DNA of 56,938 bases, the filler included, from Catajapyx aquilonaris (lineage: Eukaryota), in NCBI GenBank assembly GCA_000934665.2. It is 3 parts of 3 records of this genome, joined end to end, with 100 filler letters (N's around TTAATTAATTAA, not from the genome) between each part and the next. Parts side by side here need not be neighbours in the genome. Positions count along the whole stretch, not along the records: positions 18,990 to 37,914 come from JYFJ02006578.1; 2 more parts are not named here. One strand, 5' to 3'. The position numbers and the translations under genes were made by a program. The first letter of the stretch is position 1. Each line of letters begins with the position of its first letter. Under the pieces are notes generated by a model that was given only the letters and a program-made list of their open reading frames with translations, searched no databases and was not told the origin of the DNA. Of the stretch, positions 7,775-43,362 are shown in pieces.

Positions 7775-9583
7775 TCACAGGTAGGCTTCCTGGATGACGG
7801 AGCATCCCCTGTACAAGGAAAGAAAGGAATATATTATAAGCCGACTGTTGCTGTAAAAGAACATACTCCGAGTCGAGTCGGTAATGCTCATTTGTGTAAC
7901 TCACTTTGAATCCCTGGACACTTCGTAATACTTGTCCAGCGACTGTCCCTCAGACAGGGCATGAACAAATGCTTTATCGTGGGTGATGATTATAAGCTGG
8001 AAAGTCTTCCTCAGCCTGTGCCTCTGCACCAGTCTTCGCAATGCCTCTGCCAAGCTGGTCACATTTTGCTTGTCCAGGTTGGTAGTGGGTTCGTCCAAAG
8101 CAAGGATGCCGCACCTGGTGCTGAAGGCTTCAGCAAGGGCAATGCGAACAAGGAGGGAGGCAAGGACACGTTGGCCGGCTGAGCAACGGCCACGCATATC
8201 CATTTCAGTCTTATTCTTCACCATCACCAGACGGTAACTGTATGCGCGACGTTTACCAGTGGTTGCTGGAAATTCATGCAGAGAAGGGTCAGTACATATG
8301 GCTGACAAACTTGAAAGCAAAACATTTATTGCTGCACTCACTGGTCTTTGGAGCATCTTCATTCTCACAGGCAACCCTAATCATCTCAATGTCATTCCCC
8401 CGGTAAACAAGGCACCAGAGTTCATGCAGTACTTCGTTGATGACAGCCATTTGCTGCTCATGGTACTTCAAGATGGAAGCCTCAAGTGCGTCACGGAAAT
8501 TCTTCACATCAACTGCACCCATTTTCAGGGTCTGAAAGGGAAAGGAAACCACATGAACCCCCTCTAAAATAAATTCTTGCATCCAACGTTGGAATGGACA
8601 TTGAAACCAATCTCCACTACCTGACAACACGCTGCACAATGAAAATGACAGTTACACCTCTCACCTTGAGATAAACCATGGCCTTGTAATAGTTTCCTTC
8701 CGCATTCTTCAAATTGTCCTGCTGGAGTTCTCTCTCGACCTCTTTGACAGTCTTCTCAAGTTCTCCCTGACGACCTTTTGTTTCGTGCAGCTGAATCAGA
8801 AACATTACAACAATGATATAGTAACAATCCTCTTATTGCGTAAGTGACAATCAGCCGTAAAGGGGAGGTGTAGATGGCCGAGATGGTAACGTCTCGGCTT
8901 GCTGAGTGAAAGGCCCCAGGTTCGATCCCCGCCTGGGGAACTTTCCTTTCACCTGCGTCAGGCTCTAACCTGCACCTTGGAGGTGTCTGGCAACCTAACC
9001 TCCTGGGGGACAGCACATGACCCATAGCTACGACATTGCACCTTGCACCCATGTTCCCTCCCCAAAAATCCCTATAATATAATTCATACACCGTTATCAG
9101 CCTATCGGCTCTTTAGGGGGAAGTTTTTGTTTTGCCTGGAACTCTTTGCTTTCATTTTACTGCGCTTTTTGGGATAGGATAGGGACGGAAGGAAGCGGCT
9201 GTGGCCTATTAATTGAAGGGGTCGGTGCAATACTGCCCTAACCCACCAAATGACACAAATTGAGTTTCGCGCACTTCCATATACTACACTCAAATATCTA
9301 ATAAAGTACACTGAGATTGTCCAGTTTCTGCCATTTGTCGGTGAGAAATCAAACAATGTTTTTATTGCTCCAAGGTTATGAATGCCTTTTCTGCAGCAAA
9401 ACCGCCCTAACCCTCCGTCTTCAAATATTGCAGCGCGCAGGATGCAGCTGCGAGCAGCTGTGTCTCACGAGTTGGGCTTAAATAGTGATCTTTTGCCTGA
9501 TGACACCGATGTGGATGAGAGTACCTAAGATTCAGAGTTCGATCCTGATAATGATGAAGTGCACAGTAGTAGTCCATTGCAGC

Positions 9584-9660
<77 letters not shown>

Positions 9661-12600
9661 CGTAGTTGGGTCATTCCATGTCAAGACAGACAACTTGGTG
9701 GCTCGACCATCTCATAATCTGATATAAAAATCATTGAAGTGTTGGCAAAAATAAAGTTAAGAGCCTCCCAGGTGAAAATCCCACGGAGATATGGCAATGC
9801 CTTTCAGCAACAATGGAGCCGGATTCGAAGGTCCATTTATTTCAGGTGAAATTATTGTTGTACCCTCATGTTCATATTATATCAAATGAACTGTTGTGAG
9901 ATGAGGAACATTTTGTGGCAACATGTTTAACCTAGATTGTAAAATAAAAATACTAAAAAAATCGCATTATTGTGCAAAACGGACACATTTCATATGGTCC
10001 AAATAATGTCATTGTTAAATACATGCTAAGCGTGTTGAATTAATATGGTAGGTACATTGTCATCTGATCATTAGTCATTACTACTGCAGGACAACATCAA
10101 GGTCAAGCAGTCTTGGAGATAATAAATCTGAAATGTCGGAAAAAGCCCTCTATAGGCTACTCCACGTTATTTGATGTTGCGAGTGAACCATTCATGGTAA
10201 GTGAACAGTTCTTATACCGCTACGTTATGCATGAAAAGACGTTTCTGCGATAACTTAAAAATTGACCCAGCCCCACACTGAGAAAAATGACCCCAAAGAT
10301 CACCAAATTAGTGGAAAACAGACATTTCAGAAGTTTTATTTCCAAGACTGCTTGACCTGTGATGTTGTCCTTCGACAGTATAGTAATGATCAGATGACAA
10401 TGTTTACCTACCATATTAATTCCACACCCTTAGCATGTGTTTAACCATGACATTGGACAATATGAAAAGTGTCCGTTTTGCTCAATAATGCGATTTTTTT
10501 TAACATTTTTATTTTACAATCTAGGTTAAACCAGTTGCCACCAAAATGTTCCTCATCTCACGACAGTTCATTTGATATCATTTATATGAACATTAAACTA
10601 ACTTGTGATACGTTCTTGACCAATTTAGTTCGCATTACAAGTTGGGTGCAATACTGCCCTAAGCCATTTTTTCACACGTGGCCACCTTATTTTGTTCATT
10701 CTTAGAGTGGGTGGTCCATCATCATCATCATCATAATAGCACGTAAATGTTCCTTATTAGTGCCTTGTATATTGGGGTAGAAATGAAAATTGTCCCATGG
10801 AAAATGTGATTTATGGGTCATCTCAAACTTTCAAATGCGTTTTTCTCGAAATCAGGTTTGGGAGGGTTAGGGCAGTATTGCACCGACCCCTTCAATTACG
10901 GAAACAACTCCGGAATTTTTCTGGAAGGACCGCGGGAAACCACAGAAAACCACGGTCAGAGTTGCCGGCCCCGGGATTTGATCCCAGGAACTCCCGATTA
11001 GCAGTCGGACACCATATCCCCTACTCCAAACTGCTTCGGTCAAAAATAAAAATCCCTATATCCTTACCTCATGTCCTTTCATCCTTGCACCGGAGTTAGA
11101 AGAAAAAAATCGGAAAATTGAAGGAAAAATGGTGGTATTCCACCCCCCCTATAAGGGCCTATGGCCCTATCACAGGGTAGCATAAAAAATAAAAATAAAT
11201 AAATAAATAAAAAACGAAAAAAAAAACAATCAGCCGTAAACGTTGCAACAGACCTGCTCCTTAATCTGGTCGATCTGCCAGATGACACTGCTCTTTTCTC
11301 GCAACAGTTCCTTCGGCTTCATCTCCCCAACCCTTTCCCGGATGTCTCTGATCTTGTCCTTGAGTTGCTGGATCTCTCTCCCCTTCTTGATCACAGCGAG
11401 AGAGTCCTCCAGCTCACGCTTGTGCAGCTGGGCCCCGCCTACTGCCTGCTTCAGCTTCCCTGCCTCTTTCCGCCGCCCATCCACCTCTCTTCCAACTTCG
11501 ACCTTGTTCTGCTCCAGCATTGCAAGCTTCTCCCTCAATTCAATCAGCTTCTCGTCTCCACCTCTCTTCTTGTAAGAGGACACCAAGTCCTGCAGTGCTT
11601 GGACTTCCTGCTTCTTCAACTGAAGATCCTTCATCTACCAGAACGGGACCAGCATTGTAAAGGGATTGTATAGGCACATCACAAAAGGCTACAAAGACAC
11701 TCCAACCTTCTTCTGAACGTCTGCAATCCTCTTGTCTCCAGCTTCCTTTCCCTGCTCTTTCTCTTGTACAGCTCTGCCCAGGGCAACTCCCAAGGGGTGA
11801 AGAGCATCCTGGCATGACTCTGCTTCCTCCTGAAGGTTTGCGATCTGTCCCTGCAGCTCTTCCCTTTTCACTTCCAGCTGCTTTTTCTCCTGCATCAGAG
11901 ACTCTGCCCGGAACTTATCCTGGGTCACGTCATTCACCTCAGACCGCAGCTTCTGGACCTTTTCTTGGTGCTCCGACAGCTGGGACTGGCGACGCTCAAT
12001 GGACTCACGCAAAGTTGACAACTGATTGGACACCTCTTCAAGTTCCTTGCGAACCTGTTGCAGGCTGTGATTTGAATCTAGAATTAGATACAAATACATG
12101 TGTCAAGCACTGGATTGCCGGTGAGTAAATTTTTATGGACCACCATCTGAAATGATAGATACTGTATAAATGTTAAAAATAACATTAAGTTGTGTCGGGA
12201 ACACTAGCCGCAGCTTTTGACGTGAATACGTCTTTAAAATCGGATCAGTATTGGGGGAGTGAATTGATTGCTTATTATCAGTATTGAAATCCGGACACAT
12301 GCATGGTAATCCTAAAGTCTGGACACATGCATGGTAATCCTAAAGTCTGGACACATTCACGGTGACCGCGAAGTCTGGACACATGCATGGTGACCCTCCT
12401 AAGAATTTCCCTGCATGCACCCGCCATGGGCCCCCTGGCAGGGTCCTGACTATAACACTCACAGGCCACTCCAGATATAGTAGACTCCGATATAATAGAC
12501 TGTAATGCTTTTCTGTAACCTCGAGTTTGCCTCCATCCTAATTTAGCCCTGCCATGGGGCCCCTGGTGGGGCCCCCTGTCAGGGCCTGACTGTAACGCTT

Positions 12601-15600
12601 TTTTGTAACGCTCGAGTTTGCCTGCATGCCCCCCCTCTGTACGGACCCGATTTTAAAGACGTATTCATGTCAAAACATGAGGAACTCACTCCTGAGGGAA
12701 GGGGCAAGTCTGATCTCAAGGCTTTCGATCTTCTGCTTAAGCTTCCTGCTTTCTTGCTGTTGCTGCTCCAAGACACTCACTTCCCCTTGGATGCTCGAGG
12801 CCTCCTTCTGGCTACTGCTCTTGGCTTCAAACTTATCCTTCAAGTCATTCACTTCTACATTCTTCTCCCTCACCAAGGCTTCACTCGTTTTCAAGCTCTG
12901 CCTGGAAATCAATGGGCAAAGTGACATGTCTATGAAATACCATGAGGATTAGCAACAATAGCAACACAATTCATAGGCAGCCCTTAACCCTCAGATGGTG
13001 ACGTGCGAAATGTTTGCTCTCCGGTGACGTGGGCACTTTTTGTGACCAAGCCATATTTTTTGTTATATCTGGCGAAATATAGCACATTCGGGCTTCACTT
13101 TTGAGACAATCATAGTGTGATTCCTTCTACGACAAATACCGTTTAGTTTACATTTTTTGAGAAAATAGTGCGATCAGAAAAAAATCGGAAAGAAAATCAG
13201 TCGGGGCCAACTCCCAGGGGTAGGGGGATTCCACCCCTTGGCGGCCTGGGATGCCACCGGAGCCGCCAGACCGGATCTTGGTTAGGCCCCATCTACGCAT
13301 TGCCGCCTAATTTATTTTTTCCTGGTCGTGCTATTTGCTCAAAAAATTTAAACTAAACGTAATTCATCACAGAAATAGTCAAACGAAAATGTTCTCAAAG
13401 ATGAATCTCGAATGTCCTAAATTTGCCAAGTTATAGCAAAAAAAGGGTCGTTGGTCACAAAAAGTGCCCACGTCACCGTCCGAGGGTTAATCTACAAGTA
13501 TGCTTCCACTCAAAGAACCAACGTCTAATTACAGATAGTTTCAGAGTGAACCTTGGGTCGACACAAGGTTTTTCAAAGTATTAAAATCTCTCTTTTGCTG
13601 ACCTCATTTGCTGAAGTTCTTGCATTTCCAATTTGGCCATCTTCTCTGCCTCAGGTCGCATTTGCAGCAGCTTATTGTACCGCTTTTGCTGTTCTTCCAG
13701 TCTCTTTTCACATTCCTGCAGTTTCTCAGGAACATCCCTTAATTTGCTTGACAACTGGAAGAAAACACAGGGCCAATTATCCTCTGTAACTAATTTTTTG
13801 GTGCAACAGGCTAACAGACAGTAAAATCACAAGATCCACGTACCTCAGCAACGAGGTCCTCAGCATCGTCCTTGACATCAAAGTTCCTGTGACAAAGAGG
13901 GCAGCCTGGACAGGACTCCTTCAGCTTTTCTATGTACTTTTGATAAAAAAATCTTGATGAGTTTAATATTCCTTTCTGGTCCTGGGAGCTTTCCATCTTC
14001 TTCGACAGTGATTCCAGCTCCTCCTCCAAACTCTCACTTCGGTCACTCCCACACACTTCATACATATTTTCTTTCCAAGCTGCAAATTATCACCATAATC
14101 AGTGGGGAATCTAACACAACAAGTACAGTATACGAGGGTCCTTCGGAAATGATCCGCACTCGAATTTTTTTGGCCACTACATGTACTAGCAGAGGCTGAA
14201 TCACACTTGGGCTGCCTCAATGTATTCTCCACCGAGGTCGATGCACCGCTGCTACCTTCCTGGCAACTTCATGGTCATCTCTCGGAACCATTCTTTTGGT
14301 GCCCTCACCACCCAGTCATGGACAGCTCCTTGGAGCTCAGCTGCATAGGCAAATCTTCGTCCACGGAGGGGTTCCTTCATCACGTCGAAAAGTCCATAAT
14401 TAGAAGGTGCCAGGTCAGGAATTAGGGTGGGTGTGACAACACAGTGTAACCGAGCTCGAGCTTCCAGTAACTCTCGGCACCTCTGGACTCGCACCTCTTT
14501 CTGCTGCGGGGTGAGATCACGCGTAACCCAATGCGCGCACACTTTTTTTAAAGCAAGATCATCATGAATGATGACATGCAGGGTGGCCCGACCTAGGCCA
14601 GTGTCAAGTTCCAGTTCATCGAACGTGATTCGACGATTTCCCATAATCAAGTCGTTAACCTTCCCCACCATGACAGCTGTCCGAGAAGTCGACGGTCTGC
14701 CTGCACTAACCCCTTTTTCCACTGTGGCATGGGCTGCCTTGAACTCCTGGATCCAGTTGTAAATTGTTCTGTGGCCTGGAGCCAGCACTTATCCACACAT
14801 AGCCACAAGACGGCGGTGAATGTCCTCTGCTGTCGCACCTTCTTTCCACAAGAACCAGGCTGTCCACCGTTGGCCGTGATATAGTCACCTTCCATCTTGT
14901 CCACGCCAGTCTACACCCTCCCGCGTTTCAAGTGGGACTGTCGCTGACCTGATGCGGTGAACATGACAAACTTTTTACAGAGTGTAGGGTACTACACCCC
15001 TGTTGCTCCCCCCTGTTGAGGCAAATGCCAACTTCGTGCAGTCACGTATGCCGCGACAATAAATCGAGTGCGGATCTTTTCTGAACGACCCTCGTACTTA
15101 AGCTTTGGTCACCAAAGTGGGTATAACAGCAATGATTTCACATTTGTATTGGATAAAATTTAGTAGACACTTGCCCTTGTGAATTCATGTTCAAGTACGA
15201 GTACACTACCACACTTGAAGGTGGATAAGTGGACGTTATTGTACACAAATTTTTAGCCAAAAGGCACGTAAGATTACTTTTGTTACACCGTGGTATATAT
15301 GTCAAAACTACGCAAAAGCAACACATATTAAAGTAACAATCAAAGACTATGCCTCTCAGTTCATCATCTTTTTTCTTCAATTGTTCCCTCTGCATTTTGA
15401 ACTCAATTTCTGTAGTGGAATGCGACTTCTGCTTCTGTACAAGGTCCTTCTGCAGAGTGGATATCTCCTTGTTCTAAGCAAGGGGGGGAAAGATGGTGTA
15501 TTGACTGATCCCAGTTTTGTTCTTTCCCTTCCTTACCAATTTCTCCATACACATTTGGACTTCCAGCTTCAGGTTCCTCTCGGGAATTGTTGTAAACAGC

Positions 15601-18600
15601 TTCTGAAGCACTTCCTCGTTCTTATTCAGACTAGAAACATGAAAGTTGGAAGGGATGGAATGATCATGTGTTAGACAAAATACTGGAACAAAACCTAAAT
15701 CAAAAGATGGATTCCATTGTTTCATTTCAGAAATCAAAAAAAAATCAAGCAGTACTAACATCCTCCTAGCAGCTTCCTCCTTTGCATTGCACTCTTGGAG
15801 AAGCGTATCAATCTGAGTCTGCAGATGAGCATTCTCCTGCAGGGAATTGACCTCCTTCTTGAGAGCCTGCTCCTTGACCTCCAGCGTAGCTTTTTTCGCC
15901 TGGTCGGCAACAACCTCAGCCTTGACCTTGTTAACGTCCATCTCCTTCTGAACCTGTCTCAGCTGATTCACCAGCTCCTCCTTCTGCACTTCCAGATGCT
16001 CCACCTGGCTCCCCATCCCTTCAGCCTCACTAAGCCTCTCCCTAACCTTTCTCACTTCTTCAACAAGAGTTTGGATGGTGGACTCCTTTGAGGAGAGATC
16101 TTGTTCCACCTTAGCCTTCTTGCACCTGGCCTCAATCACGTCTTCCTCCAGGCGCTTCATCTCCTGGTCGAAATCAGTCTTTTCTCCAGCAAGATTCATT
16201 TCTGCTGACTCAATACGAGCTTCCAGCACTGCAGAGGCCCTCCGTACATGGTCATCCTCCAATACGCCACTTGAGGGGAGGCCAGCTGGAAAGACGAAGA
16301 GATTTAGTATACCGTACCTATCATCGAATTCAGAAGTATTCCTAATGTGGCATAATTGCTGTGCCTTGTTTCCTATGTTTCAATGCCTCTGCACATGAAT
16401 TAGAGTTAGAGTAGGTGTGAGAAATTATTGGAGTTTGGATGATAATATTGGGAGAGGCTGGTGGGAGAGCAGCGTTCCTCCCTCACCATCGTCCAGCTTA
16501 AGACTCCTCAGCAACTGGTCCCTTTCTCCCAGGTGCTTCTGATGCTGCTCAGATTCATTCCTCAGCTTCCCCATGTCAACTGACATACGAGTTATTTTCA
16601 TTGACAGTGACTGCTGGTCAGCCTCTCCCTTGGAAATCTGATCATCCAGCTAGAGATAGAGAAATCTCACGTTAGTCACAAGTGTGCTAAATGTCAAGAA
16701 TATGAAGAATTTCAGAACGCACATTTGGAGCAACATCGTTTCCAGCATTTCCAAATGTGCCTCTCTTACCTTCTTAATATCCTTCTCCTTCTCTCTGATC
16801 TCCTCATCAAAATTCCGAAGGCTCCTGGTAAGTGCGGCCTCATCAGTTGGCGTGTCCTCCTTCAGTCTTTTCTGCAGTACTTCCACCTCCTCATCAAGGT
16901 GTTCAAGCATTCCCTGCTTCCTTTCTGCAAACACAAAATACGCTACTGTAACATGTCGTTAAGCATCCGGTTCTATGTTGTTTTAAAAACTAGTACTCAA
17001 GATGATGCTGCGGAACCTAACCAAAAAAACAACAAAAACAAAAACAATACTGTATTCATCTTCTCAGCTGGGATTTCCTTCATCCACACCAACATACACT
17101 GATTAATTAGAACTTTAAAACACTAGCCCATTTCCCGCTGCAGGCCAACAAGATTTTGTTCCAGTCCCATGAGTTCTTCCAGCTTAGTAGTCAATGGCAT
17201 CATCTTGCTTTCCAGAATCTCTGAATCCTTCACTGTAGAATCCAAGCGACTTCTCTTGACCTTCAGTTCTTCGTTTGTGCGATGAAATATTTGCTTTCGC
17301 TCCGCATACAGCTTCAAACCAACCTCTCTTTTGCCAATATCTGCAATGTTGTTTCCATACTGTAGATATCATTTTCATTTTAAGAATTCAACATCAAATA
17401 TTTACAACTCAAATAACATTCCGCGTCAAATTTTCACCTCTAAGAAATCTGATTGTAAAAAACCGTGCCAAAGTAGCTCAGATATTATTAGCCACAATGT
17501 CCACTAAAAAGCAACAAAATCAATCCTGCAACATTCATTTTACAACCAACCAGCAATATTTATCCTCAAGCCAGAATAAATAAATAAGCTACTAAAAAAT
17601 TTCCAAAATATAACCAAAACTATGCACTGTATTTAGTTTAATGTGTAAATGCATCTATGCTGCCCAATGGAAAACATATACGCTTTCCTTGGGAAGCATT
17701 GGTATTCGGAATATGTTGGCATTCCAACCTAACAGTTCGTAAATAAGAGCTCACCAGTATTCATTTCCTTAAACAGCTTGTGAAGATTATCCATGCACTT
17801 GATGTACTTTGTGGCACTGAAAATGGCATCAAATCGTTCCTTCACTTTCTTGCCCTCATCCAAAGGCCTGAGAAATGAAAAAGACATTTTCAAAATAGTA
17901 GCAGCACACAGATGTCAACAGACATTGGAATTCCTTTCTGCAAAACATAAACCAAGTGTCTTACCAGTTGGATTCCTCCTGATGGCAGAATATGACGCTG
18001 TCCAGAATGGCTCTTGAAACCCCCAGTGAGTTTGACATCTCCACATTGACTTCCAAGCACTTGCTGCTTATGTCCGATACCTGTATCAAAGACAAATACG
18101 ATCACCTGAAATCATGAACAGGAGCAAAAAGCAAGTTATACTGCTGCCATTTACCTCCCTCCCTGATCCTCATAACAATAATTAAAGTATTGCACATCAA
18201 TATTATTATGATTTCTCTGACAGTAGGAAACAACCACTACCAACATTTCGACTCATGCAGTCCATTATCACACAATTTTTAGTACTACTCACAGTAGTCC
18301 TCATTCCTAACTATGACCAGATTTGATGTGTCACTCAATTATAAGGTGTATACATATAAAGTGTATTACATTATAATATGTGGATCATTACACAAGCACA
18401 AAAAAAAAACACTGCCGTAGCAAACCAATTCTGGATGCAGATTGTTTACGTAATATGACCTCACCACTCCAGTGTCCATGTTGCTCCTCCTGAGTGTGGA
18501 GTCTAGGGTTCGCATGTTGCTATTAGTTCCTTTGTATGTGGCCACGACGGAACGAGTGATAATCACCTTGTCGCGGCCATTACAATCATTGAAGCTGAGT

Positions 18601-18989: not shown

Positions 18990-21900
18990 GGGGGTATGGG
19001 AGGGGGAAGTGGAGGGAGTGGTGGAGTTGGGGGTGGGAATGGAGGGGGTGGAAGTGCAGCAGGAGGAGGTACTTCCTCAGTGGTGTCTTCTTCAGGCAGT
19101 GGTGGGAAGAAAGAAAAAGGAAGTATGCCAGGAAGCTCAGCCACTTATGGTTTTGGAAGTGGTAGTAGCAGTGGATGTAGCCTTGTTCCAGATCCATCAT
19201 TGGTAGTGNTCCATCATTGGTAGTGGTGCTCAGAGCAGATGAGAAGGTAGGCCTACCTGTAGACTTTGCACTAAAGCCTCTCTTTGAACCAGAATGAAAA
19301 CAGATTACTTGAAGTCATGCCAAGTGTTTCAGCAAGTAACCTAAGTTCTTGCAGTCTTTGGTTAAATAGGAAGATGCTGCGATGCTTGCATCTTTTAATA
19401 TGGAGGTATTCAACCATATGTCAGCACTGGAAACAAAAGTCACTGCAACAAGTTGCTGTTAAGAGCACTTCTGCTTAACATTTGGACATTTGTCTTGGGA
19501 AAATTACGCAATCAAATCAAGATGTTCCCTTGGACACATCTTATTGTGTTGCCTTTCTTGTATGCAGCCTTCTTGTTTCTTCAAACTTTATTGAAAAAGA
19601 AAATAGGAAGTGGCAATTTACGGCTCAATCAAAACCTGAATCTTGGTTCAGTACAGTAGAACTCCAATTACACTGGTCAAAAAAACAAAAACAAAAACAA
19701 ACAAAAAACTGCTGCATGACATTTTCCAGCTGATTTTAAGTATTTTTTCAACGCTGATTTCAAATCAGAAATCGGTTTTCCTCTCCAAGCTCTAGTTTTC
19801 ATGCAATTTGAAACTTGTGATTTTCGCAATAAAGGACACCCGTTGCTATTTACATTAGGGTTAGCTTGAGAATTAGGCTTAACTATCATCTATCATCTAT
19901 CATAACCTTACCCCTTTCATGTCCAATGTGTTAAATGTACCAAACCAACCTCGCTATATAGAGCTTCGCGCCATCTTCCCAAAAGGGCCACTTTTGCCTT
20001 TACGCGGGCATAGGTACACCATAGGCAAAGGAACGAACCACAGTTCTAAATCTGGAGCTTACAGAGAAAAACTAACATCAGATTTGGATTCAGCACCCTC
20101 TAATTAGGTAAGAACAAGTGCTGGCATCAATGCCACAAAAAATTTGTTGGCCAGTGTTATCAGACTCCTTGATTTATCCGACCGTCTCGCTCCAGCAATA
20201 AATCTATGTTCTCTCATCAAATACTGTACTGCAGGCCTACTCAGCATTAGTTTTGTATTGCCTTAGTTAAATTTATTGTAAACACAGTACAGCAAAGTAT
20301 GTAAGACAAATACTTCACTATTTCTTAGAAAAACATTACCTTGTACATTATTTCATGTTTTTATGTTTTTGTTGCGTTTTATTAAAGTTTTTTAACTATT
20401 CGGATTATCCGACCTTTTCGGTTATCCGACGATGCCCTAGTCCTGTGGGTGACGGATAATCAGGGTTCTACTGTATGTTGTTTTGTGGTACAGTAATACA
20501 TTCTTAAGATTATAAAGTAAATTTTCATGGGATAGAAAAATCTCATTGGGCCATTGCATTTCAAAAAGGAAAGATGTCTTGTGATTTTGCAGACACAACA
20601 TGACAGTGTGCATTATTTGTTGAAAGACAGCTCCCACCCACAAACCTTATCCAAATGCCTTCCGCTCTGTACAATTCAACAGAATAACTTATGGGGGTAA
20701 GTGACTCTGCATGTCTATTTATGGTTCATATGAAAATTCCTGAGGTACCCTGTCAAGCAGGGTTGTGAACCGAACCGAACCCTTGCTCCGTGAACCCGAT
20801 AACATCGAACCCGCTCTGGAGCAGTAGAGTCGGAGTCCGGAGCGAGCGTCGGAACGGGGTACGGGTTCAAGGCGGTTCCGGGGGAGAGTGGAGCCAAGGT
20901 CGGAGCGGGTCCGGAGCGAGCACCAGAACGGGGTTCAGGTTCAAGCCGATTCAGGGGAAGAGTGGAGCGAAGGTCGGAGCGGGTTCGGAGCGAGCGGCTC
21001 CAGAGTTGAACCTGGTTCAGGAGCGGGTTCCGGAGCGGGTTCGGAGCGGTTCAAAGCTTGGTTAGGTAAAACATACCAACCCAACAGGGGGAAAGGCAGT
21101 AAAACCGCTGGATTTACTCCTGAGTATGCATCATGTTTTCATGGTGGGAGAATGCCATTTCCAAGCACCCGCGATACAGGGTGTACCGCAAATGTCACAT
21201 TTTCATGTCATACGCATTTTTGTATGTTACAATATGTCATCTGCATTTTTGTATACCACAATATTTCATACCCATTTTTTGGATGTCACATTCTCATGTC
21301 ATACGCATTTTTTGTATGTTACAATAATATGATATTGTAACATACAAAAATGCGTATGGCATGAAAATGTCACATACAACTAATGCGTCATGACCATTAG
21401 CTCTTGGTATGACATGAGAATGTGACATCCAAAAAATGGGTATGAAATATTGTGGCATACAAAAATGTGGATGACATATTGTAACGTACAAAAATGCGCA
21501 TGACATATTGTAACATACCAAAATGCGTATGACATGAAAATGTGACATTTGCGGTACACCCTGTATCGCGGGTGCTTGGAAATGGCATTCTCCCACCATG
21601 AAAACATGATGCATACTCTGGAGTAAATCCAGTGGATTTACTGCCTTTCCCCCTGTTGGGTTGGTATGTTTTACCTAACCAAGCTTTGAACCGCTCCGAA
21701 CCCGCTCCTGAACCGGGTTCAACTCCGGAGCCGTTCGCTCCGAACCCTCTCCGACCTTCGCTCCACTCTTCCCCTGAACCGGCTTGAACCTGAACCCCGT
21801 TCCGGCGCTCGCTCCGGACCTGCTCCGACCTTGGCTCCACTCTCCCCCGGAACCGCCTTGAACCCGTACCCCTTTCTGACGCTCGCTCTACTGCTCTGGA

Positions 21901-24900
21901 GCGGGTTCGATGTCATCGGGTTCACGGAGCAAGGGTTCGGTTCGGTTCACAACCCTGCTGTCAAGTGCAGGGTATGTGACAATAACTGAATGTCTTATCA
22001 TCTGAAGACATCATGTTGGCTTGTTCGCAGTGTATGCCACTAGGATAAGCAAGTGGGAACTGCTGCTAAACAAACTAAGTACCGGTACCACATGTTACTC
22101 AGTGTCCAGAACATTCTATCTGAAGTGATCTTGTTTAGTAATGAGGAAACAAGTCATTTTGGGAAAATGTGTACTTATGATAGGACTTTGGCAATTACTC
22201 ACTTTCCTTTTATGTGACTATTTGCCACTTTGTAATTGCAGGATGCTGTGGATATTTTCACATCTAATGCCCAATTTATAAAGAGTTACGTTTAAACCAC
22301 GGAAAAATTTCTCAAATTAATTTTCACTCTTATCACAGAAATAAACCATTGTTGGAGTTAAGGGGCCAATTGTACCAACTGTAGGGGTGATCATAGGAGG
22401 GGTTTCCCTTCTACTAACCTGTGCTACTGGTTGGGGCTGTAGGAGGATCTCAGGTAGGAGCGCGCTAAGAGTGGTTCGTGCAGTCAACCATAAATGTTCA
22501 GGGGCCTTTATCAGGAAATTGTGCCTGTCCAAAAAGGGAAATTGATTTTTTTGGTTAGGATATGGAAAATTTTAGTGAAGAATTAAGAAATTTGCTTAAT
22601 TGAGATGGTAGTGTAATGGAAAACGTGGTTTAAACCCCTGTTCAAGAAATTGGGCATAATCATTACAAAATTGTTGGGAGTACACTACATTTCTCCAGTA
22701 TGAGAAAATTTAATGACAACATTGTTCAATAAGTGGCATGAATTCTCTGATGTAAGGGGGGTGACAACACACTTTTCCAGTTAAAAAAAATGTGGAATAG
22801 TGTAGTATTGACAAGGATATCTGTTACACAACAAATTTATTTCCACTCCAGGTCACATCATTTCCATGGCAGTCAGCATTATCTCTTTCATCACAGTCTA
22901 AATGCCAGCAGGGAGACCAGATCCTGACCGACTTCTGGGAGCCATATGATCGTGACCAGGTCCTGGCTCAGGGATTTGGGGTTACCCTAACACAAGACTC
23001 ACCCATCAGGGACTTGTGCTTTCTCTGTGGGAGTGCAGCAGAAGCAGGAGAAGATATGATTTATTGTTCAGTTTGTTGCGAACCATTCCATCAGTTTTGT
23101 GTGGAGGATGGAGGTCTGCCCCCCCCTTCCACATCCACCCCACAGGAAAGAGAAGAGACAGAAGTTAATGAAATTAAGGTGGACTGGGTGTGTCAGAGGT
23201 GCACAGTTTGTACCGCTTGTGGGAAGCACTCTTGGGATCAGTTGAAGTGCCTAAAATGCCACCAATCCTACCACTTTGAATGCTTTGGAGTTACTGGAAT
23301 GGGACGACGGTTCAGGAAGGACAAGAGCTGGGTTAGTTGTCTTTTTTAAATTATGGATGGAAGTGACCATAGTGTTCTCAGTGTTTTTAGTGTATATCTG
23401 CTGGAGTCATCCAAAAGTAGGTTCACTCACTAAGTCTGAATCAGCCAAATTTAGGTCAAGTGAGGGTGGAGTGGCACAATGAAAAGTAGTTGAAGTCAGA
23501 TCAGGCTGGAGAGAAAATTGCATGTATGGATGTTCCTTGTGCGTTTGTAGTGTAACCTTATTTATTAATTCATACATGACAAATGGGGAAATGTCCTCTC
23601 TCACAATTTATTCTCTCAGTTCACATCCTGATGCAGCATGTGAAAGGGTCTTTACACAGCATGCTCCATTAGCAAAGCATGTGCAGCAACTCCTCATTGT
23701 GGCAGGGTCCAGTAATTGAAGGGTGATGTGCAACAAGGTTTAAAGTTCCATCTGCCTCGTTTTTAATTTTTCTGGTGTTTTGAGTTCAGCGCGACATTCT
23801 GTGCAGAATGGTACTCGTTTCACTTGTTAGGTGGAAGCGTTACTTTGGGACTGCTTTAGGGTCGTTCTGTAATAAGGTTATATGTGCCGATGGAACAAAT
23901 AAAGCTCTCTCCTGAAAAGTTGCTATTTTGGTACTTGAGACGTTGTAGGAGATCACCCTTCAATTCAGGAGGTATTCTCTTCTTACTGGGCATTTAATGG
24001 CAATGAAACTAAACCTAAAATGAAAAATATCCCAGTTTAGTTAATTTTTGTGTAGGAAATTCTGAGTGTTTGGAGGAAGACTACCATGCCTCAATTAGAT
24101 CAAGGTCAGCAGAGTATTTTGTGGGACTTTTTTATGGTGGGCAAAAAATACCAGCAAAATTTGTTAGCCTAATTATTTCAACTTTCTGTTATGAATCATT
24201 TCGTTTGTAATGACAGAAAAGTGAAAAATTCACATACATCATGTCACTTAAGGATCAGCATGCAAGTTGCACTGCCATAATTATTTTCACTTTCTTGAGA
24301 GCATTTACCAAACTTCATTTATTAGAGCTTTGAATGAAATTGATGATTATGCATTTGTGGTCATACAATGTAATCCCCTTGGGTAGAAATGTTGTATTGC
24401 AATGTGATACAAAACAAGAATGGCAATCACGTGAGCGTGATTAGAATATACTTTTTCTCATTCTTTCAAGTGAACGTGTGAAGATAGAGTGAACCCAGAA
24501 AACCGGAAGTGGGGGGTCACCGGAAGTTGACCATGACACCTATTTAGGTCACGCTTAATTCGAATATGAAAACCGTTTGTCGCTATCTTTTGCAGTTGAG
24601 GCTCTGATACCTGTCCACAGTCAGAGAGACAGAGCCGTTCTAGAAGACTTTTTTTTGATGATGAGAAAAAGTCTGTCAAAGTCAAAATTTATCATTCAGT
24701 CATTCATTCTGTCATGGGATTTCCTTATGCAGGGTACCCAGCAATGATGAAGGAACTGCTAGGAATAACTTGCAGCACTCCTCGTCATCTCACCAGGCCA
24801 TATCCTCCTGAGACCTGAGAAGAATTGAGTAACGCAATGTCAGTTCCTATTGCATTTTCTGAACATTTTCCCAATGAGAAACAAGAAAAAAATTATAGTT

Positions 24901-27900
24901 CTAAAATATTGACAAAAATAGTGACAAACAACCAATGAGAACATTAGGACCCAATTTCTGCTACAAAAGCAGAACGGATGAAAGCTGAAAATTTAAATAC
25001 CACTTGATGGATCACTAACATTATAGTGCTCTATCCTCCAAACAAGGTTTTTTTAAAAATTCCTTTGTGGTAGCAATTCGCCTCAGAAGGCAATTAAAGA
25101 TAAACTGCAATTATTTTTCCCCCTAGCATGGTACCTCGCTATTCTAGATTTTAAAACTGAACTGGAGTGCAAAGCACACTTCCTTGTGGGTGTATAGGTA
25201 CAGGCACTTAAAGAAAAGTCACAGCCCATTCAGCTAAAAAAAACTTTTTTCGGATGTCAATTTAAATTGACATTATTTGTTCTCAGGAAGAAAAGAAAAT
25301 TACCAGTTCTCTACAGCAACAAAGATTGTCACAGCCACATCTTTTCGTATTTCCTAATACACATTCCTTGCGAATCCCAGGACATTCACTGCATTGACGA
25401 AAATCGCACTCGAAATATGAGTAAAAAAATAAAACGTATCAGATGAGCGCCTAGCTTCAGCAGAGGCATCCGCCATTTTCATGAGTTATTTAATTTTCGT
25501 GGCCAAAGTCAGATATTTGACACTAGGTGGCTACATCTATTGAGGCCAGATTGTAATCATGGGATACCAACAGATTAAAGTTCTGTTGGCATCACTAGTT
25601 GGCAGCATTTTTTTTTTTGCTGATGTCGACATATGAATCCTGCTAGTCTCAGGAGGCTATATGAATTCTTTGGTGCATGGTTAGATACATGCAGAGGGGA
25701 TTATTACCATATTTTTAAAATTGTGTTTTTATTTTGTTTACCCCTTGATGTCCCTTACGGGATCTATAGGGGGGTGGCACACCACCATCTGTTTTCTATA
25801 TATTTTCCAGCTTCTTTCTCTGATGCAAGGAAACAGGGACATTGGGAAATGATAGGGATTGTTGGGGAGGGGACACTTGTGCAGGTGCAATCTCTTAAAC
25901 CTTTGGGCCATGTGCAGTCCCCCAGGAGGTTAGGTAGTTGCCAGACACCTCCAAGGTGCAGGTCAGAGACCCTCCCGACACAGGTGACAGGGAACTCCCA
26001 GGCAGGATCGAACCTGGGACCTTTCACTCAGAAAGCCGAGACGTTACCATCTCAGCCACCACACCTCCTCCCCCATTATTACCATACAAAAGTAAAAAAT
26101 TTCAACATAAGTATGTACTATGCAAGTCTAAAAATTGGGTTTGTCTACCACTACCAAAATTGTGAAACTAAAAGTGATGAAGATTCTTAGTGCTAAGCAT
26201 CTGCATTCATTAAAATTTTGAAAATACAGTGGGCCCTCACTATTTGTGAGGGTTTGGTTCCAGGATCTCCTGCAGATGTCAAAATTCACTGATGCTCAAG
26301 TCCCTTACATAAAATGGCCTATTATATGCATATAACCTACACTCATTCTTCCATATACTTTAAATCATCTCTATATTACTTATAATACCTAATACAATGT
26401 GAATGCTATGTAAATAGTTGTTATACTGTAGTGTAGTGTTTTGCATGCAGCAAATTAAAGTTTTGCTTTATGGAACTTTTTTGACTTTCCATTTTTTTGT
26501 TTTTTGTTATCCAAATATTTTCAATCCACATTGGTTCAATCTGCAGATATGGAACCTGGGGATACGCAGGGCTGACTGTAATGCACACTCTTGACTTTGT
26601 AATGCAGATTTTAACAGCGCAGATACCATGTGGGAAAAGCCCTAGTATCACTTTTCACCCAAGGCCAGATTATGTATAATGACTCTGAATATCGTGAGTT
26701 GAGTAGCCCTGGTTCAAGCTTGGGTCAGGATTGCAACTAGGCGAGTGTTGAATTTGAGTTGGATCGATGTTAGATGTGACCCGGCAACGATCATGCTGCA
26801 TTCAAATGTCATTAGAAGTAATCTCCTGTAAAGATGATCATGGTGCATGGTGAAACTGATCCTTGGACACCTTTTTGTATGATTATGCAACAAATTCAGT
26901 TGATACTGCAAAGCTCACTGCTTCTCTCCCCTTAATGACTTTTCTCATTGAGCCTTGACCTGCCCACTCTGTTTCTGTTTTGTGAAAAGGTACAATTTGA
27001 TTTCTGATCATCTTTATCTAGCTATGTGCTACATGCCTGAGGTGTCGCAGCTGTGGGGTGGCAGAAGTAGCGCAGTTTGTGGGCAATATTCCTCTCTGCA
27101 GTGACTGCTTCAAGCTTCGACAGAGGGGAAACTACTGCCCCCTTTGCCAGGCTTGCTATGAGGATGACGACTTTGATTCTAAGGTGGGAAAATTTTACTC
27201 CATTTGTGTTCTACTGTAGTTGACACATTCAGCTGTAACATTTAATCTTTGTAGATGATGGAGTGTGGAAAATGTCAACGTTGGATCCATGCCTTGTGCG
27301 AGGGACTGTCAGAGGAGAAGTACCAAATTCTCAGCTTCCTGCCAGAATCTGTTGAATATGTCTGCAGGTAATACTTCATAATGCAGGAAACCCCGCATTA
27401 ACCCTGAAATCGGGGAAAAAGTTGAGATTCGCAGATAGGATTTTTCCCCGGGTTCCCAATACACCTCTAGTTAATGACAACAGTCATGCAATGTCGCCAC
27501 TATTCAGGGCTATCAGAAGGTATAGTCATCTCTTGCTTGTGCTAAAAATGGTGTGCACAAACACCGGGTGTTTGACCAAGGTCTCATTTTTTGTTAGAAA
27601 AGTTGTAGCTTGGGCCCTAGCGGTGGGGGAAGGAAGTGATGGAATTTCGTAGCAACATATTTTAATGTGCACTGTAGATCATCCTCTACATTGTAAACCG
27701 TTTTTATTGTAAAACTGTAAATGGATAATTGTTTCAAAATTTTAAAGGGACAATCCACTCAAAATACCAGTTGGGTTCTAAAAATCGGGCAAAAAATCCT
27801 GATTCCGAGGGTACAGACAGTTTTTCTGAGAGACGAAGGGTATGGCCAGGGTGAAAGCTGGAAGTGTGTCGTTCGAAAACCGCACGCGGAGCAGGTGGCG

Positions 27901-38195: not shown

Positions 38196-39714
38196 TACTA
38201 ATCGCATCTCAAATGTCCTATAGCAATAATTTTGCACTTTGGAGGTAGCAATAAAAAATAATATCTGTACCATACATCACACCACTCCGTGACCACTCCG
38301 CTTGTCCTACTGCACATTATTGTAATTATTACGCTGAATAAGTTTGGGGCTGTCCAACTGCTGCACTGGTCCGCTAATCATGTAATACGATGTCCTGGAA
38401 TATCTTCCAAGGAAATGAAAGTCCCAGATGATCACAAAACATAATATTGTGTGACCAATAAACAACTTTCAATTCGATACTGCATTTCATTGTTTTAGTT
38501 GAATTATCCAATATACTGTACGTATTTTCAACTGACTTTTAAAGCTCATTTACTATACAGGATTGCACTTGTTGCCTTTTTGAAGTCTGCTGGGAGCGCG
38601 CATACACTGCTATCTTTCGTATTCCGGACGAGGATGGGACGGAAACAACGTCAACTATATCTGTGGCAGTGTTCCCTCATTGGACAGTATGTCACCAAAT
38701 TACGCATTACTTATTTACCCTATACAGGATTGTACTTGTCATTTTAATATTGACCATGTCACCTTTTTGAAGCGGGCTGGGATCGTGCATACATTGTTAT
38801 GTTTTGTATTCCTCTGACTACCCTATTTTGAAAATTTTGCGCAAACCTTTCCAAATAATAGGTTAGGTTATCTTAGGTTAGGTTGTTACAGCATACCCCT
38901 TCCTAAATCCAAAAAATCAATCTTTTCATTCTTGCCTTTGCGACATAGCCAAGCTGCCCCCAGCCACCACTCACCCTGCCGCCTCCCGCCCACCAGTAAG
39001 AGTTACTATTTCCCAAAAATTAATGGTGTTTGTGAGAGTGTATATTACACTATTTTCTGCAACATAGAGAGGGGAAAGCCACTTACACAACCCTCATCTG
39101 ACTTACACAGTACTTATGTCAAGGAAAATTGTTGTTCAAACATCCGGAAATCTGGGTGCCCTCATTTCATATTTTGACAGAAATGGCAGTTTCAAAAAAA
39201 TTTCCTGGATCGACCAATATGTAATTAATCATTGAACCACGTGACAATTCATTTGGACATCCATACGCGACAATAAAATTTAAATTGGGATCTCTTCCAA
39301 CTTAATGCGGTTTAACTTTTTAATTGGCCATTGGCATAACTCATAAGTATTTCCTATTACCTAGGTGGAGTTACTTAATCACGCTGTCTCATAAGAGTAG
39401 TAACATGAGGTATGAATTTTTAAAGCAAAGGCATGTGTGAAATTTTGATACTAATTGAGGTGACCACATTTTTATATCTGGCTAATATCGAAATTCGCCT
39501 CTCTAAATTTTGCGGAAATCTCAAGAAAGCATTCCAGGCTTCATTTTTAAGCCAAATTCAAACTTTTTTAAAAACGGTCGATTTTTGAAAATAATCAACT
39601 CAAAAATTTGGCCGCTATACCTTTAATTCTAAATTTTGATATTTCACGAACATAATTTCTACCGTCAGAAAAGGTGTTAAAATAACTTTCCATTCCAGTA
39701 ACCACATTTTGAAT

Positions 39715-40437
39715 ATCTTAAAATATTTTTTTCTCAGAAATCGTTATTTTAAAAAAATTGCGCTTAAAATGAACCCTACATTGTTTAATTGACATATCCG
39801 CAAAAAAACGAGAGTAGTCTTGTGAAATTTGCTAACTATAAAAACCATATCTTACAAATGTTGCCTCCGCCGTCCACCCTCAGTTGGAGGCCCATTACTG
39901 TCAGGAATTATGCTGGTTACAAATCAAAATTTCGAATTCATTTTCATTTCATTTTAAGCACAATTCAATTTCTTTTCATGTCGATTTTTGAGTAAATGTG
40001 AAATCAAAATTTTGGACGCCATCTTTAATTCGAAATTTGGTTTCTTACAAACATAAGTTCGGTGGTCTAAAAGTGTGTTAAAATATCGCTCACCACAGCA
40101 TGAATATGATTTCGTATTTGTAACAATCTTTTGACAATTATACGTATTATGGCACTCCAACTGAGGGCGGACGGAGGCAACATATGTAAAAATGTTTTAA
40201 ATTTCACAAGACTACTCTCGTTTTTTTGCGAAAATGTCAATTAAACACTGTAGGCTTCATTTTAAAGGCAATTAAATTTTTTTAAATGCCGATTTCTGAG
40301 GAAAAAAGGTGTTAAGATAGCGCCCTAAATCATTGATCACATTTTGGATATGTTACACTGTTACGAAGTTATGTCCCTACAACTGATAACTGACGGAGGC
40401 AAAATTCGCAAAAAGATACGTACTTTCGCACCCTGTA
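39715..40437. mobile_element. Decayed Tc1/mariner-type element with an internal long inverted repeat
   Basis: Arms ~39715-39895 and ~40152-40318 are reverse complements (CGCAAAAAAACGAGAGTAGTCTTGTGAAATT / AATTTCACAAGACTACTCTCGTTTTTTTGCG). One CACCCTG-TA terminus at ~40437. Confidence 0.6.
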
Positions 40438-42320: not shown

Positions 42321-43362
42321 ATGGTGGGGGTAGCAGCGTGTCTCTTGGCTCTGGCCGCAGTCGCTTCTGGTCAAGTCCGTTATAACAGGCAGTTTCGTCC
42401 TTTTTGGATTGTTAAAATTGCAGAAATCGTACAAAAACCCTTTTCTAAGTACACATCCCCCAGAAAATATTATGCTGTATTCTTTGCGATACATGTTTCT
42501 AACCCTGATTGAGGAAAACCCCAACAAAGTACCTGAAGGAGACTCTCCCCGATTGTTCATCTCCTTCTGGTGGATTTATTCCCTGGTCATAATCTGTGGA
42601 TACGAAGCCCTGTATTTCGGATTCTTAGCATCGCCACAGCAGGAAGATTTGCCTAATTCCTATCAAGATCTCGGCAATCGACGTGACTGGAAGTAGGGAA
42701 CTCTGGGACCAGCAAAACCGTATTTCTCTAATATTTTCATTGACAATGACCTTGATTATTTCCAACCCATTGATGAGCATATGAGTGACGAGGACGACCT
42801 CAGCATATGTGTTAGTAAGGAAATAGCGACAAACTTTGCGTGCATAGGTCCAAGTGACTTTTTGCTTGCTTTTGGGGCTCAATATGTAGACAAGGCCGGG
42901 AAAATTCCATTAGCTCTGGCTCCAGATGCTGATATGTTATTTTACGGTGGATATATTTTTGACAAGCACAGTCTGTGGGAACCCATAATGGACAAAATGT
43001 CGTATTACTACGTCAGTTCTGGCATGATGGCCAAAGACGACGAGTACTTGCATTACACTCTTCTTCGATTGGGACTTAGGGATGCAAGAAAAACTGACAG
43101 AATGTACGAGCTGTCGATGGCTTTGAATTTTGATCAGTTGAGAGGAATAGTATATTTTCTCTTCATTTTTTGCTGGGGAGGAGGGATTATTCTCTTCATT
43201 GGAGAAATGCTATATTGGAAATATATACACTTATACAGCATCTCAGACAGCATCCATGGGCGAACCCTGGGAAACGAGAGCAAGAGAGAATCACTGCCCA
43301 TACTGTCAGTTGTAAAATTTAGCTCACATTCGCCTTTAAATGTCTCGGCAAAAGATCATTGA
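42321..43362 (+). pseudogene. Intronless divergent ionotropic receptor (IR) copy B, internally deleted, with a premature stop
   Basis: Signal peptide MVGVAACLLALAAVASGQV is joined out of frame at ~42378 to the membrane region. It has M3-like SPRLFISFWWIYSLVIICGYEALYFGFLASP..P.S..DL, an in-frame TAG at 42694-42696, an S2-like region, and the last TM LNFDQLRGIVYFLFIFCWGGGIILFIGE. Confidence 0.75.

Follow-up and report, generated by a model that had tools for sequence, protein, structure and literature searches.

Short DNA repeats of the MER2 type are known from placental mammals. According to the excerpted text of PMC1914374, human MER2 is 345 bp long with a median divergence of 18.5%, MER2B is 336 bp long with 19.2%, and MER2, reported in human, rhesus, cow, dog and rodents, had its activity at about the time when the placental orders diverged. 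Both families are classed under Mariner/Tc1 in excerpts of PMC5753468; their labels are the Mariner/Tc1 class in Repbase and MER2_type or TcMar-Tigger in RepeatMasker. Tigger elements as a group are polyphyletic according to an excerpt of PMC7325037. Excerpts of Diaby et al. 2022 (PMC9219625) describe transfers of Tigger elements linking Eutheria with 31 species of arthropods and give a terminal inverted repeat (TIR) length of 8-33 bp for Tigger/pogo elements. For mariners, excerpts of Oliveira et al. 2012 (PMC3517439) report Mariner_Tbel and Mariner1_BT, two ant-mammal families with more than 95% consensus identity that invaded mammals at ~100-69 Ma.

The locus described here lies in a window of 56,938 nucleotides, which is the whole stretch of DNA analysed and joins three parts of the genome of Catajapyx aquilonaris with filler. 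Positions 26227-26578 are a dead non-coding MITE of Tigger type, 352 bp long, which starts with CAG, ends with CTG and is bordered by TA on either flank. The element and its immediate surroundings comprise the following features:

About 23332..27021, plus strand: trithorax (trx) intron holding the MITE, from tblastn-placed exons, with GT and AG ends read in the sequence
25700..26086, minus strand: SINE-like host repeat with 12-bp direct repeats, beside the MITE
26225..26226, no strand: TA target-site duplication, left (family: TA at 21/31 left ends)
26227..26578, no strand: whole MITE, non-autonomous, Tigger-type, decayed, non-coding
26227..26250, plus strand: left TIR of about 24 bp, from pairing with the right end
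26227..26431, plus strand: core of about 205 bp, common to most host copies and to the mammal-type matches
26420..26445, plus strand: junction left by internal deletion in the short host subfamily, from alignments of host copies
26445..26578, plus strand: second arm, T-rich spacer and right TIR (26555-26578)
26579..26580, no strand: TA target-site duplication, right (family: TA at 25/34 right ends)

The inverted repeats of the window copy are eroded, with 13 of 24 bases pairing. The trx exons were placed by tblastn with four trx homologues at about 22906-23334 and 27025-27186, and those bordering the MITE-bearing intron are PHD-finger exons. In a 27-row tree, a split supported at 100/97 groups the C-terminal block of trx with pancrustaceans and separates it from spiders, a chiton and deuterostomes, while its position beside insects is weakly supported (83/59). 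The gene belongs to an arthropod, and probably to a hexapod. A TA-flanked 352-bp MITE inside an arthropod-type trx gene had been proposed in the sequence-only reading; the ends, the TA sites, the intron between PHD-finger exons and the pancrustacean placement bear this out, and all motifs quoted in that reading are present in the window.

Elsewhere in the window, a near-identical ORF-length repeat pair on opposite strands lies upstream of trx (20828-21912). By translation, several minus-strand ORFs presumably represent a TM9SF exon (665-1135), Rad50 exons (7901-16379), a mariner remnant (14252-14788) and an ionotropic-receptor-like gene (42334-43362).

The window copy belongs to a dispersed family. 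Searched as DNA, with 40 of 75 candidates scored, the 286-Mb assembly gave 41 matches of 69-84% identity on different contigs, and further searches brought the number of distinct loci matching the family profile to at least 54, a count that is a lower bound; two loci with common flanks (423/468) represent one insertion. The genomic copies, whose number the sequence-only reading had regarded as telling, are many and separately diverged. The family majority sequence is 341 bp long and its inverted repeats pair at 22 of 24 bases. Divergence from this majority has a median of 18.0% (n=52 loci, range 12-35%), a value to which some six poorly aligned copies without the core, each above 26%, contribute; the window copy stands at 13.2%. 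TA occurs at the ends of copies at the frequencies listed above, against a background of 6.5%. TA duplication, short TIRs, a short non-coding sequence and many interspersed copies are features of Tigger/pogo-type MITEs, and membership in pogo rests on the ends and the TA sites because no parent transposase adjoining such ends was found in the 481 kb searched.

The internal junction of the window copy is the commonest form among host copies. A longer interior, with ~80-170 extra bases at the junction, is present in L010, L028, L029, L066, L067, L070 and L090, and L078 and L022 show other arrangements; at least three types of deletion occur in the host. The L022 copy (L022:650-1752, C757) carries an inverted core duplication and a long palindromic insert.

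In length class and divergence the family resembles MER2 and MER2B: 352 bp for the window copy and 341 bp for the family majority compare with 345 and 336 bp, and 18.0% divergence compares with 18.5% and 19.2%. Unlike these families, it resides in an arthropod and has deletion junctions of its own, and its copies, at least 54, contrast with 8,377 MER2 and 2,224 MER2B fragments in human.

The family is an old resident of this genome. Relatives of the SINE-like repeat at 25700-26086 occur with 75-85% identity in L012, L013, L015, L062 and L093, and in L015 and L062 the same SINE family sits inside MITE copies, with target duplications of 13 and 10 bp. Contamination of the assembly, or a chimera with mammalian DNA, would fit a sequence that resembles a mammalian repeat. 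Four DNA sequencing runs from one sample and study contain 0.64-0.82 of the sequence words, with no RNA run among those listed as holding them; these runs are possibly the source sample and hence not independent. Against this explanation stand 54 loci on different contigs, each with its own divergence, the TA insertion sites, the host SINE with its target duplications inside two copies, a junction specific to the host and the location in an arthropod trx intron. The presence of host elements inside an old resident family therefore excludes contamination for all practical purposes, in agreement with the doubt about it voiced earlier.

Likeness to a mammalian repeat was examined at the protein level. 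Gene callers leave spurious ORFs over repeat copies, and such ORFs were searched with a profile built from 10 unaltered stop-free translations of host copies, aligned in one frame. The profile gave 98 protein matches at E<=1 (best 1.3e-21) and, among 1.84 billion representatives, 1,515 at E<=0.001 and 220 at 1e-10. Three TPR-type false matches (P0405, P0459, P0481) were removed before counting, leaving 230 retrieved proteins, and removal of 18 near-duplicates yielded 212 non-redundant matches. The window copy itself is matched by 229 of the 230 (tblastn, E<=0.001), whereas shuffled consensus sequences match 0-6 of them. The second arm (26445..26578) is likewise matched by mammal-type proteins, and the likeness through the non-coding interior, beyond the TIRs, is as previously claimed. 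Pfam assigned no family to six of the matches. A pile-up on the host consensus (93/105) is reference-biased and was not relied on.

The matching mammalian family is one that we take to be MER2/MER2B. Mammalian origin of most matches was judged from flanking sequence. The named record KAL0616128.1 from Plecturocebus cupreus (titi monkey) carries the segment (E 5e-13), another match continues into LINE-1 ORF2 sequence (E 5.5e-13), and further matches have flanks that presumably derive from ruminant and pig SINEs. Alu-like parts occur in 5 of the 212 matches, including the two primate-type reference matches, and the GVQW motif is Alu-derived according to an excerpt of PMC6101605. The partner lineage might be misjudged if the matching family were real but not MER2, or if the matches were largely non-mammalian, and just 1 of the 30 match clusters looked up bears an organism name (Plecturocebus cupreus). 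That one record is nevertheless a primate carrying the segment, the flanks include L1 and GVQW-type Alu sequence, and most of the differences from the host have the character of CpG decay, which makes such a misjudgement very improbable.

The inferred ancestors of the two families are near-identical over about 200 bp. The consensus of the 212 matches, aligned without host sequence, is the same as the translated host majority at 59 of the 67 positions that are not stops. Under a CpG-aware codon model the ancestors share 62 of 68 codons, stop position included, or 62 of 66 when the first two columns, in which match subtypes differ, are set aside. At the level of single bases, agreement is 169/204, against 179-183 in simulations that start from an identical ancestor, and it reaches 145/157 for confident bases. 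Fourfold-degenerate sites agree at 16 of 25, as compared with 17-21 for an identical ancestor and 3-6 for randomised sequence. Ancestral identity would thus be roughly 93-96% over the compared stretch of 204 bp out of ~350, an estimate that is subject to a choice of matches by a profile derived from the host, and so biased towards likeness, to the selection of ORFs for lost stops and to codon-model rates set by hand.

For one host gene over the same split, the trx C-terminal block is 46-49% identical to seven vertebrate proteins, as against 62 of 66 codons for the non-coding DNA of the element. DNA free of constraint cannot retain this degree of identity through vertical inheritance across the protostome-deuterostome split, and for this reason vertical descent cannot explain the likeness; the earlier argument to this effect is upheld by the silent sites and by the low identity of trx to vertebrates. 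Inheritance from a bilaterian ancestor, or convergence of AT-rich sequence, could appeal to the presence of Tigger elements in most animal groups noted in an excerpt of PMC9219625. The copies, however, decay unconstrained to 12-35% from their majority, silent-site agreement exceeds the randomised control, a conserved host protein block is less than 50% identical over the same split, and shuffles match 0-6 of 230 proteins; descent or convergence is hardly credible against these observations.

Horizontal transfer of a parent Tigger-type element is the best reading and a likely one. The matches show several junction types, the commonest of which is close to the host junction. The long host derivative joins interior segments that occur in separate match types, and a longer progenitor would therefore have been present in both lineages and have undergone separate deletions. 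The deletion junction of the window copy was found in 0 of 212 matches by pattern and in 0 of the 29 readable across the junction, a weak test in that few ORFs span it. Of the two things that the sequence-only reading had supposed to move between lineages, the Tigger-type parent is sustained by the near-identical ancestors, but the deletion derivative is not; that derivative probably did not cross.

The competing proposal, in which the non-autonomous MITE itself was transferred and then amplified by a resident transposase, draws on the similar length (352 versus 345/336 bp), on the nearness of the commonest junction among the matches to the host junction and on the failure to find the parent in the host assembly. 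It is unlikely, given that the host junction was seen in none of the 212 matches by pattern and in none of the 29 readable across it, and that the long form among the three or more deletion types of the host implies that a longer progenitor once existed in this lineage. The host family is filed as a sister of the MER2/MER2B-type family and not as a member of it, a placement for which the junction test is weak. Its relation to a mammalian family, putatively MER2/MER2B, consists in a near-identical inferred ancestor over 204 bp.

Transfer of the parent would have proceeded as follows. Internal deletion of a Tigger-type cut-and-paste transposon of the pogo superfamily would have produced the miniature inverted-repeat element, and the parent transposase would have bound the ~24-bp ends, excised the short copies and inserted them at TA. 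Dozens of copies would then have become fixed, and the copy in the trx intron would be spliced out and decay neutrally. An almost identical parent would also have entered early placental mammals and given rise there to deletion products of its own (putatively MER2/MER2B). The parent would have crossed animal lineages horizontally, directly or via unsampled hosts, probably at broadly the time of the eutherian burst, and MITEs would afterwards have arisen by independent deletions in each lineage. The host copies are 18.0% diverged, and with an arthropod neutral rate at least equal to that of primates, their burst would be no older than that of MER2.

The parent itself, whose transposase would combine a CENP-B HTH with a DD29-36D catalytic site and whose ends would be those of the MITE, was sought in the assembly, which contains at least 54 DDE_1 and at least 17 CENP-B_N matches and further Tigger-like matches, all lower bounds. 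No parent transposase adjoining MITE-type ends was found in 481 kb around DDE_1, CENP-B_N and fetched protein matches, and no transposase match was present in the loci around MITE copies. The parent in Catajapyx aquilonaris has been lost, has decayed too far or was missed by the search. The sole MITE-like sequence near a transposase match within the 481 kb is the copy in L117, outside the ORF: this copy (L117:2060-2345, C1774) lies upstream of an unrelated jerky-like ORF of 520 aa, at a distance of ~930 bp, and could be in its promoter region. Open frames of 400-600 aa contain many of the pogo-type DDE_1 matches (loci L031-L060), and intact TIRs are present at several DDE_1 loci (L032, L033, L039, L041), which suggests that these loci may belong to young or active families.

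The transfers described by Diaby et al. share with the present case the superfamily, the TA duplication, the short TIRs and the pair of host groups. They were traced, however, with transposase-coding elements at an identity of at least 70%, whereas the link here is non-coding and of higher identity. The families of Oliveira et al. are likewise shared between insects and mammals, but they are mariners and not Tigger elements, their distribution in mammals is patchy while MER2 is reported in all the mammals listed above, and full-length elements are known for them, in contrast to the Catajapyx family without a found parent.

No report of an invertebrate MER2-like family was found in the open-licence literature, a scope outside which the Repbase and Dfam entries lie. 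Neither a mention of MER2 nor a match to one of 10 motifs occurs in the supplement of PMC9219625, within the first 400 characters of long cells, and the supplements of PMC7386202 and PMC10162687 gave no usable motif match, where the interior of cells longer than 400 characters could hide matches. Excerpts of PMC12400950, PMC6327564 and PMC5389726 held nothing specific to a MER2-like family. Two candidates were rejected: a TIR-like Trichinella element in the supplements differs after 12 bases, and a 15-base match in PPARG probes from a full-text motif search diverges right after. DNA pattern scans of viral, metagenome and prokaryote collections were empty and blastn against plasmids and phages gave no match; as these are not animal genomes, both are uninformative on animal distribution. 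Rfam returned one chance match outside the element.

Another Tigger-type sequence in the same genome is the single-copy open ORF at L037:829-2526 (C1465, about 38354-40051, plus strand), which we take to belong to the Tigger7 lineage. Its best match is an elephant KRAB-Tigger protein, with 68% identity over 97% of 566 aa, and it is 61-66% identical to marsupial, dugong and lizard proteins. A quick tree places it in a clade with support of 100, together with afrotherian, marsupial, lizard and shrimp proteins. No inverted repeats are visible at L037 and no second copy of the DNA at its start was found; a possible splice acceptor lies upstream of the ORF. L037 may represent a second transferred family, perhaps a domesticated one. 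Since elements of this type circulate widely, a network of hosts is favoured over one direct jump.

A tentative extension, which is rather doubtful, is that two or more Tigger families were common to an early-branching hexapod lineage and early placentals, namely the MER2-type parent and the Tigger7-like L037, and that such arthropods acted as donor or reservoir for part of the basal eutherian wave of DNA transposons, in which case the missing MER2 parent might be recovered there. The kind of event is known, as published work already describes transfers of Tigger and mariner elements between arthropods and mammals, and what is gained is one well-defined case with a computed comparison. MER2-type repeats are present in thousands of human copies and spread around the split of the placental orders, according to excerpts of PMC1914374. 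An invertebrate sister family would mean that the MER2-type parent circulated between phyla, and it offers a place to seek both the source and the full structure of that parent.
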